Assembly: GCF_036507355.1 (NCBI RefSeq)
Contig: NZ_AP027877.1
Length of the DNA: 64,000 bases
Direction: 5' to 3' (one strand)
Origin: Escherichia coli
GTDB lineage: Bacteria > Pseudomonadota > Gammaproteobacteria > Enterobacterales > Enterobacteriaceae
Below, in pieces: positions 21,001 to 24,000 of the stretch. How positions within the stretch are numbered: the first letter of the stretch is position 1; the number at the start of each line of letters is the position of its first letter. Made by a program: the position numbers.

Positions 21001-24000
21001 AGTTGGGATGAGGCGCTGGATCTTATTCACCAACAACATAAACGCATTCGTGAGGCTTATGGTCCGGCATCGATTTTTGCTGGTTCCTACGGCTGGCGTT
21101 CAAACGGCGTGCTGCATAAGGCCTCGACATTATTACAACGCTATATGGCGCTGGCAGGCGGTTATACCGGGCATCTGGGGGATTATTCGACCGGCGCGGC
21201 ACAGGCGATCATGCCGTATGTCGTGGGTGGTAGTGAAGTTTATCAACAGCAGACCAGTTGGCCGCTGGTGCTGGAACATAGCGATGTCGTGGTGCTGTGG
21301 AGTGCTAACCCACTCAATACGCTGAAAATTGCGTGGAATGCATCCGATGAGCAGGGGCTTTCTTACTTTTCTGCACTGCGTGACAGCGGGAAAAAGCTGA
21401 TCTGCATTGATCCAATGCGATCGGAAACCGTCGATTTCTTTGGCGATAAAATGGAGTGGGTGGCACCGCACATGGGCACCGATGTTGCGCTGATGCTGGG
21501 GATCGCCCATACGTTGGTGGAAAATGGTTGGCACGACGAAGCGTTTCTGGCGCGTTGCACCACCGGTTATGCCGTCTTCGCCTCTTATTTGCTGGGCGAG
21601 AGTGACGGAATAGCCAAAACCGCCGAATGGGCGGCAGGGATTTGTGGGGTTAACGCAGCGAAAATCCGCGAGCTGGCGGCTATTTTCCACCAAAATACCA
21701 CCATGCTGATGGCAGGCTGGGGAATGCAGCGCCAACAGTTTGGTGAGCAAAAACACTGGATGATCGTCACGCTGGCAGCAATGTTGGGGCAAATCGGCAC
21801 ACCCGGCGGCGGTTTTGGTCTTTCTTACCATTTTGCCAATGGTGGTAACCCCACGCGGCGCGCTGCGGTACTCTCTTCCATGCAGGGCAGCTTGCCGGGT
21901 GGCTGCGATGCGGTAGATAAAATCCCTGTCGCCCGCATTGTTGAAGCACTGGAAAACCCCGGTGGCGCATATCAACACAACGGTATGGACCGACATTTCC
22001 CGGATATTCGTTTTATCTGGTGGGCGGGCGGTGCCAACTTTACTCATCATCAGGATACCAATCGCCTGATCCGTGCCTGGCAAAAACCGGAGCTGGTGGT
22101 GATCTCTGAATGCTTCTGGACGGCGGCGGCGAAACACGCGGATATCGTTCTGCCTGCGACTACCTCTTTTGAGCGTAATGATCTCACCATGACCGGTGAT
22201 TACAGTAATCAGCATCTGGTGCCGATGAAGCAAGTGGTGCCGCCACGCTATGAAGCGCGTAATGATTTTGATGTTTTTGCCGAGTTAAGTGAACGCTGGG
22301 AGAAGGGCGGTTATGCACGTTTTACGGAAGGAAAAAGTGAGCTGCAATGGCTGGAAACGTTTTATAACGTTGCCCGACAGCGCGGGGCAAGCCAGCAGGT
22401 TGAATTGCCGCCATTTGCTGAGTTCTGGCAAGCCAATCAGTTAATTGAGATGCCGGAAAACCCGGACAGCGAGCGGTTTATTCGCTTCGCTGATTTTTGC
22501 CGCGATCCGCAGGCGCATCCATTAAAAACCGCCAGCGGTAAGATTGAAATCTTCTCGCAGCGTATTGCCGATTACGCTTATCCGGATTGCCCGGGGCATC
22601 CAATGTGGCTGGTGCCGGACGAATGGCAGGGCAATGCCGAACCGGAACAGTTACAGGTACTTTCTGCTCATCCGGCGCATCGTCTGCACAGCCAGCTGAA
22701 TTACAGTTCTCTGCGCGAATTGTACGCGGTGGCAAACCGTGAGCCTGTCACCATTCATCCTGACGATGCCCAGGCGCGCGGCATACAAGATGGCGATACT
22801 GTTCGGCTGTGGAACTCACGCGGGCAAATTCTTGCCGGAGCGGTCATTAGCGAGGGAATTAAACCTGGCGTGATTTGCATTCACGAAGGGGCATGGCCGG
22901 ATCTGGATTTAACCGCTGACGGTATTTGTAAAAACGGCGCAGTGAACGTGCTGACCAAAGATCTCCCCAGCTCGCGGCTGGGGAATGGCTGTGCGGGTAA
23001 TACGGCGCTGGCATGGCTAGAAAAATACAACGGTCCGGAACTGACACTTACAGCGTTTGAACCACCGGCCAGCTCATAATCCAGGTGGGTAGTTGGGTTT
23101 CATCCTGCCATGCGCAATCGACAATGTGAAAACCCTGCGCCTGGTAAAAATCTATCGCCGGTTGATTTTTTTGATAAACCTCCAGCATCAGATGGGGATG
23201 GCGCTGTTGCACATACTGCATCAGCGCCTTACCAATACCGCGCCTGACGGCCTTCGGTGCGACAAACATCGCTGCCAGAAATCGGCCTTCCATAATGCTG
23301 ACAAAACCGAGAAGCTTACTGTCTTCTTCCCAGACCCAGTTTTGTGCGTTGGCAAGATAGGCATCCCGCACCAGCGGAATGCACTCGCGCCAGTAATTCG
23401 CTTTTATAAAGGGATGGCCCCAGGTTGTACTTTCCAGCCACAGTTCGAGGATCGCGGGGAGTTCTGAACGTTGCGCTTCCCTAATCATGGTTTATTTCCC
23501 GGATAGCAACAGCAGCCAACCACATGATCATTCACCAGCCCACATGCCTGCATAAAGGAGTAACAGATTGTGGTACCGACAAACTTAAAACCACGTTTTT
23601 TCAGTGCCTTAGATAGGGCGTCGGAGGCGGGCGTAGATGTGGGGATTTCGCTCAACGTTGTGGCTTGTGTCACCTGTGGCTGATGATTTACAAACGACCA
23701 GACAAAGTCGGCAAACGGTTCGCCGTTCTGTTCCATTTGCAGGTACGCCCGCGCATTACCAATAATTGCCTGAATTTTCGCGCGATGGCGGATAATCCCG
23801 GCGTCCTGTACCAGTCTTTCGACATCCTCTTCCTGCATTGCGGCAACCTTCACCGGATCGAACTGATGAAAGCAGGCGCGATAGTTTTCGCGTTTTTTGA
23901 GGACGGTGATCCACGATAACCCAGCCTGCTGCCCTTCCAGGCAGATCATTTCGAACAGTTTTTTACTGTCAGTTTCAGGCACGCCCCACTCATTATCATG

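Follow-up and report, generated by a model that had tools for sequence, protein, structure and literature searches.

Two neighbouring genes of Escherichia coli, bisC and yiaC, converge and share their last codons. This raises two questions: whether the shared stretch is a genuine part of both coding sequences and, if so, whether it is kept as a regulatory device or as a form of packing. We examined both in a window of 64,000 nt (the whole stretch of DNA analysed) from contig NZ_AP027877.1 of RefSeq assembly GCF_036507355.1. The genes and their junctions lie as follows:

20746..23079, + strand: bisC coding sequence, biotin sulfoxide reductase, 777 aa, with an annotated TTG start and a TAA stop at 23077-23079
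23048..23488, - strand: yiaC coding sequence, GNAT lysine acetyltransferase/lactylase YiaC, 146 aa, with a TAA stop that is the reverse complement of 23048-23050
23485..24048, - strand: tag coding sequence, DNA-3-methyladenine glycosylase I, 187 aa (RefSeq annotation, NCBIfam NF007678)
23048..23079, both strands: 32-nt convergent overlap, made up of the last 10 sense codons and the stop of each gene
23485..23488, - strand: ATGA junction of the tag stop TGA and the yiaC start ATG, a 4-nt overlap (sequence reading)

The ORF listing and direct reading of the sequence both gave a 32-nt convergent overlap at 23048-23079. This agrees to the base with the initial annotation, which had ended bisC at 23079 and yiaC at 23048, and with RefSeq and K-12. 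The 4-nt overlap of the yiaC start with the tag stop, also claimed there, was borne out by the ATGA, in which the tag stop TGA occupies 23485-23487 and the yiaC ATG 23486-23488. A tag ORF of 266 aa was set aside as a mechanical upstream extension only, the true tag coding sequence in the RefSeq annotation being 187 aa. RefSeq coordinates for bisC, yiaC and tag are the same in NZ_OZ197100.1 (E. coli; 100% identical over the query), and K-12 MG1655 has the same layout (tag, 3713092-3713655; yiaC, 3713652-3714092; bisC, 3714061-3716394). Of 5426 complete E. coli genomes, 5421 carry the locus at an identity of at least 95%.

The overlap is already annotated, both of its halves are already in the literature (for the acetyltransferase/lactylase function of YiaC, see PMC6199490 and PMC9636275), and it is a member of a common class. 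For the commonness of convergent overlaps we relied on published counts: 75 of the 663 overlapping adjacent pairs in E. coli are convergent (PMC4161906), as are 7% of well-characterised overlaps across 338 genomes (PMC2478687).

We then compared the junction across 15 enterobacterial lineages. These were E. coli (the window and K-12), an Escherichia sp. clade strain, E. albertii, E. whittamii, two further Escherichia, Salmonella, Citrobacter rodentium, Enterobacter, Pseudescherichia, Kosakonia, Metakosakonia and two others. Genera other than Escherichia were reached through YiaC homologues and the contigs that encode them; a contig scan with the exact peptide gave only five Escherichia loci. 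YiaC identity falls to 52% within this set, the lowest values being those of two lineages outside the named genera. In 15/15 lineages the bisC stop lies at yiaC nucleotides 410-412, and the alignment of the junction is gapless. The overlap is 32 nt in Escherichia spp., Salmonella, C. rodentium, Enterobacter, Pseudescherichia and two other lineages, and 38 nt in Kosakonia and Metakosakonia only.

The few differences between lineages can be read codon by codon. The bisC stop is TAA or TGA, which on the other strand are the synonymous Ile codons ATT or ATC in an invariant W-I-M of YiaC. Likewise, a facing bisC Leu codon CTT or CTC gives the yiaC stop TAA or TGA. Kosakonia and Metakosakonia have CTG for this Leu, which removes the yiaC stop and thus lengthens YiaC by two residues and the overlap to 38 nt. 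Judged on the aligned sequences, the arrangement is more than a chance juxtaposition, as the same overlap is retained in 15 lineages.

An artefact of annotation or sequencing, with one stop wrong and true genes that do not overlap, would be the simplest alternative. Convergent overlaps are the only class whose long members survive scrutiny, and databases do contain some long convergent overlaps that stem from misannotated 3' extensions (PMC2478687), although this is a general point and not one about bisC and yiaC. Here both stops are kept through the 15 lineages, and ~5400 complete E. coli genomes carry the same or almost the same sequence. In addition, family profiles and solved homologues span both proteins to within a few residues of their ends. 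BisC scores 1089.6 bits against NCBIfam TIGR00509 (bisC_fam; cut-off 1017.55), with residues 13-775 of 777 aligned to profile positions 1-768 of 772. YiaC scores 265 bits against NF007853 (cut-off 125) over residues 1-145 of 146. For Tag, the score against NF007678 is 432.6 bits (cut-off 349) over residues 1-187.

The solved structures point the same way. The BisC C-terminus, overlap codons included, aligns up to residue 809 of 813 in TorA (7l5i) and up to residue 778 of 780 in DMSO reductase (1eu1), where the tail reads '...VTVFDTPK' against '...LTAFEPPA' in BisC. Since the tail can be aligned almost to the ends of these homologues, the bisC stop stands at the ancestral position of the family. 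YiaC (146 aa) is about the same length as its solved paralogue YjaB (147 aa; 2kcw) and so shows no elongation. The initial annotation had named a shorter true frame of bisC or yiaC as what would abolish the overlap; such a frame is excluded by the conserved stops and by homology up to the protein ends. On these comparisons we consider the misannotation reading refuted, with a residual probability close to nil. The overlap is real, ancient, ordinary and already known.

Which gene governs the shared stretch can be approached from its phase. Codon positions 1, 2 and 3 of bisC face positions 1, 3 and 2 of yiaC, so that no wobble position is common to both genes. The phase in which position 2 is opposite position 3 is reportedly the commonest for conserved convergent overlaps, a finding said to be that of Rogozin and colleagues in 2002 in Trends Genet. 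In this phase, as in comprising two genuine opposite-strand coding sequences with common 3'-terminal codons in several genomes, bisC/yiaC resembles the conserved convergent pairs of prokaryotes. We see no essential difference from them: at 32 nt, the overlap is longer than the trivial 1-4 nt and well below the suspect range of >60 nt (PMC2478687).

Column entropy was measured across 11 representative lineages for the 26 columns of the overlap that lie between the stops, a small sample for which the values are descriptive. The mean was 0.61 at bisC position 3 (yiaC position 2), 0.22 at position 1 of both genes and 0.09 at bisC position 2 (yiaC position 3). The single-gene flanks showed normal wobble periodicity, with ~1.07-1.08 at the third position of the gene concerned (1.07 in the yiaC-only flank). 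Within the overlap, variation is synonymous for BisC, whose tail LTAF[E/D]PPASS is almost invariant. For YiaC it is non-synonymous: after W-I-M-S-W the successive residues are P/Q/R/G/L, V/A, V/D/G/N and L/P/Q/R. Because the variation falls at bisC wobble positions, which are second positions of yiaC codons, bisC would dictate the sequence of the overlap. We infer that the bisC frame dominates and that YiaC probably ends in a tolerated passenger tail of ~8 residues. The case would then show how one frame can rule the evolution of a dual-coding stretch whilst the tail of the other gene drifts.

At its other end, yiaC is joined to tag. Stop and start overlap in all lineages, by 1, 4, 20, 23 or 26 nt. 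The 4-nt ATGA junction is found in most Escherichia and in lineage L014, and a 1-nt TAATG junction in E. whittamii and Escherichia sp. E1V33. In the remaining lineages, which include most of the non-Escherichia ones, the overlap is 20-26 nt and Tag has 192-193 aa. Reading by eye also gave a weak Shine-Dalgarno-like sequence for yiaC, GGGAA. Christensen et al. 2018 (PMC6199490) described yiaC as overlapping tag by four nucleotides in a polycistronic operon. PMC10666635 gives -4 and -1 as the overlaps most often seen between unidirectional genes, and shows for three native E. coli pairs that coupling by termination-reinitiation requires a short overlap.

The tag-yiaC pair shares with such systems its common strand and -4 overlap, but Tag and YiaC are not known to belong to one complex, and the evidence from -4 and -1 spacings is not directly applicable to the 20-26-nt overlaps of other genera. 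The ATGA and the conservation of the stop/start overlaps suggest the coupling that the initial annotation had proposed. Given the ATGA junction and the weakness of the GGGAA, yiaC is probably translated largely by termination-reinitiation, and co-transcription of tag and yiaC with translational coupling is likely.

At the convergent junction, the lack of intergenic DNA means that each transcript must run into the other gene. Where transcription then ends was addressed by scanning and folding. A consensus scan gave 8 terminator-like sites against 7.2 expected, i.e. no enrichment, and the 140 nt downstream of each stop folded no better than shuffled sequence (z -0.28 and +0.40). Scan and folds yielded no convincing intrinsic terminator on either strand, and no bidirectional one at the junction in the form of a GC-rich hairpin with an A-tract and a U-tract; the only hairpin of note in the scan was one-sided, with a weak U-tract, and lay 63-85 nt inside bisC. 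Pairs served by such terminators share with bisC/yiaC two convergent units and a very small space for termination, but here there is neither an intergenic hairpin flanked by A-/U-tracts nor room for one. Rfam families gave no match in window positions 20000-25500 at an E-value up to 1. A run of seven T at 23166-23172 (+) was considered as a bisC terminator and rejected: it has no stable stem upstream, it coincides with the YiaC codons QKNQ, and it is specific to E. coli, the corresponding stretch being T-poor in other genera.

Published K-12 data locate a region of termination for the tag-yiaC transcript. In Adams et al. 2021 (PMC7815308, supplementary file 2), Rho termination is recorded for a region at K-12 position 3714344 (+), in the class 'antisense bisC', with a Rho score of 7.30 and a significance of 5.5e-14. 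Reads there number 90 upstream and 23 downstream in the -BCM (no bicyclomycin) sample, and 60 upstream and 112 downstream in the +BCM sample. The bisC alignment between K-12 and the window is gapless, so the coordinate can be transferred: the peak maps to about position 22796 in the window, 252 nt past the yiaC stop. With a score computed over windows of 800 nt, the position is coarsely resolved, and the region comes from one K-12 experiment rather than from the present strain. The Term-seq tables of the same study assign no 3' end to yiaC, to bisC or antisense to bisC.

Overlap of the transcripts is also recorded by ExcludonFinder (PMC12288877): yiaC-bisC is among the 165 convergent excludons seen in at least 50% of 58 MG1655 transcriptomes. 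Taken together, the excludon listing and the Rho region indicate that the mRNAs overlap and that at least the tag-yiaC transcript is ended by Rho within antisense bisC. This supports the earlier claim that the two mRNAs must overlap at their 3' ends. The accompanying claim, that there is no room for independent terminators, holds in that there is no intergenic space; termination has, however, been moved into the coding sequence of the partner and, at least for tag-yiaC, is Rho-dependent. Two further features on the yiaC strand belong to this region:

22796..23047, - strand: putative 3' untranslated read-through of tag-yiaC, antisense to the last ~95 bisC codons, up to the Rho peak
22963..22985, - strand: hairpin with a 9-bp GC-rich stem in yiaC-sense RNA, 63-85 nt past the yiaC stop, within the bisC codons LPSSRLGN

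The hairpin offers another account of the tag-yiaC 3' end. It could set the mature end by terminating transcription directly, or by blocking exonucleolytic trimming after Rho termination farther downstream. Its 9-bp stem contains 6 GC pairs and has a folding energy of -18.9 kcal/mol (z -2.8) in E. coli, and it lies upstream of the peak of the Rho region. Across 11 lineages 85.9% of cells are paired and one pair covaries (wobble-wobble; C-G, G-C and U-A). The stem is, however, mostly forced by the conserved BisC residues LPSSRLGN, is weaker in Salmonella and C. rodentium and is lost in Pseudescherichia, Kosakonia and L014; moreover, the shuffle control has a known tendency to over-call when sequences are related. 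The U-tract that follows, AUCUUUGG, is weak. As a conserved terminator we rejected the hairpin on the single covarying pair, the loss in three lineages, the weak U-tract and the lack of a corresponding end in the Term-seq tables of PMC7815308. As a candidate weak terminator or 3'-end-protecting stem it is a low-probability proposal, and that it defines the mature tag-yiaC end is improbable.

We favour, with a probability of about three in four, a frozen, bisC-dominated dual-coding junction whose obligatory 3' transcript overlap is resolved by Rho termination inside the neighbouring gene. The arrangement would be an ancient tail-to-tail packing of two full-length genes rather than a dedicated regulatory device. 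The bisC stop would be held in place as the reverse complement of the Ile codon in the YiaC W-I-M; as this motif is invariant, neither gene could easily shift the stop. From there yiaC would continue for 10 codons over the antisense of LTAF[E/D]PPASS and end where a Leu codon of bisC, CTT or CTC, happens to read as TAA or TGA. The tag-yiaC mRNA, untranslated past the yiaC stop, would run no more than a few hundred nt into antisense bisC before Rho ends it, as published for K-12, and the bisC mRNA probably ends by Rho inside antisense yiaC/tag.

By this route the two 3' ends would share a complementary stretch of 32 nt at the least, probably of several hundred, and in its overlapping 3' transcription the pair qualifies as a convergent excludon, the concept of Lasa, Toledo-Arana and Cossart. 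Antisense interference between bisC and yiaC, raised in the initial annotation, is plausible on the layout of the genes. Long-term conservation of the exact overlap could also reflect selection for the overlap itself, which would leave the same pattern in our data as freezing by a dual-coding constraint. The overlap would then be kept for the mutual antagonism that convergent transcription creates between tag-yiaC and bisC expression, through collision of RNA polymerases and/or through RNase III acting on the duplex of the two complementary 3' ends. The listing of yiaC-bisC in PMC12288877, the conservation in at least 15 lineages and the entry of tag-yiaC transcription into antisense bisC (PMC7815308) are all consistent with this.

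The defining outcome of an excludon, however, is mutually exclusive expression (by interference or RNase III), whilst yiaC-bisC was assigned by transcript overlap. In its accessible part, PMC12288877 records overlapping RNA-seq coverage only and reports neither reciprocal expression nor RNase III dependence. The dual-coding constraint suffices to explain the conservation. Furthermore, it is commonplace for transcription to run on into a convergent neighbour and be stopped there by Rho: the Rho region table has very many entries of the class 'antisense', and the K-12 pairs yhjV/dppF and ghrB/yiaF, which are present in the window too, have Rho regions antisense to the neighbour (PMC7815308). The BCM-sensitive region on the yiaC strand antisense to bisC is an event of the same class as those at dppF and yiaF in the K-12 equivalent of the window, with nothing unusual about it. 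A functional excludon is therefore unlikely in our estimation, and any mutual repression of tag-yiaC and bisC is likely to be mild. Less likely again is the combined proposal that the overlap wires tag-yiaC antagonistically to bisC and that the hairpin at 22963-22985 is a selected 3'-end element of the tag-yiaC mRNA. Were it true, the junction would be a functional excludon embedded in coding sequence and not a frozen accident, and an operon for alkylation repair and a lysine acyltransferase would stand opposed to bisC, which acts in repair of oxidised biotin and methionine.

For the frozen junction that we prefer, the importance is small beyond good annotation practice, with some consequences for strain construction. 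A synonymous change in the bisC Leu codon shifts the yiaC stop, and a synonymous change in the yiaC Ile codon toggles the bisC stop between TAA and TGA. Similarly, a clean knock-out or C-terminal fusion of either yiaC or bisC also changes its partner, in the final 10 codons and in the 3' UTR. Such side effects of knock-out and tagging bear on studies of acetylation and lactylation by YiaC. A second convergent overlap of coding sequences occurs in the 64-kb window, between a small ORF and hokA, and measures 24 nt.

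The 3' overlap between bisC and yiaC is not the only convergent overlap of coding sequences in the window. A second, of 24 nt (16668-16691), lies between a 23-aa hypothetical ORF and the 3' end of hokA, and is probably the ysaE-hokA pair of the published excludon list for E. coli MG1655 (PMC12288877). The two genes involved, in the coordinates of the sequence record, and two other convergent junctions in the window, each with a gap between the genes, are:

803641-803712 (record), 23-aa hypothetical ORF, overlapping the hokA 3' end
803689-803841 (record), hokA
yhjV/dppF, convergent junction, 29-nt gap
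ghrB/yiaF, convergent junction, 49-nt gap

The published table that gives a Rho termination region antisense to bisC (PMC7815308) also lists such regions antisense to dppF and yiaF, at K-12 positions 3702288 (+) and 3718677 (+), which correspond to the parts of the window that hold dppF and yiaF, at these two junctions. Two insertion sequences were also located:

8962-10175, IS1
15068-16437, IS150

The IS1 element splits a yiaA/yiaB-family gene into two pseudogene fragments, and the IS150 copy adjoins hokA.

On the other side of yiaC, the overlap with tag varies among the 15 enterobacterial lineages in which the tag/yiaC/bisC locus was compared. Outside Escherichia (and lineage L014), Tag is 192-193 aa long rather than 187 aa, and the tag/yiaC start overlap is 20-26 nt rather than 4 nt. 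By lineage, tag ends within yiaC as follows:

23 nt into yiaC, lineages L008, L010, L012, L013 and L015
20 nt into yiaC, lineage L011
26 nt into yiaC, lineage L009

In C. rodentium, the tag gene is absent from the source annotation, yet an ORF ends at the tag position. Within E. coli, one match from the search of complete genomes with the junction query, that in strain BE104 (NZ_CP040643.1), was limited to query positions 341-901, on the side of yiaC and tag; this genome appears to lack the bisC side or to carry it in rearranged form.

The annotated start of bisC is a TTG at 20746, the first start codon past the upstream stop, and the BisC family profile match begins only from residue 13. Further into the protein, residues ~668-697 (22747-22836) gave strong whole-sequence E-values against WD40-repeat chains (e.g. 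2ymu, 2e-20). Comparison of this segment with those chains returned zero qualifying stretches. The similarity is a coincidence of a short motif that is repeated within WD40 proteins, not homology.

Elsewhere in the window is a fimbrial operon:

26679-32161, + strand, long polar fimbriae operon (lpfA1, lpfB, lpfC, a fimbrial protein gene and lpfE)

The operon is a strain-variable island: in the window strain it lies between yhjX and eptB, and in K-12 eptB directly follows yhjX.
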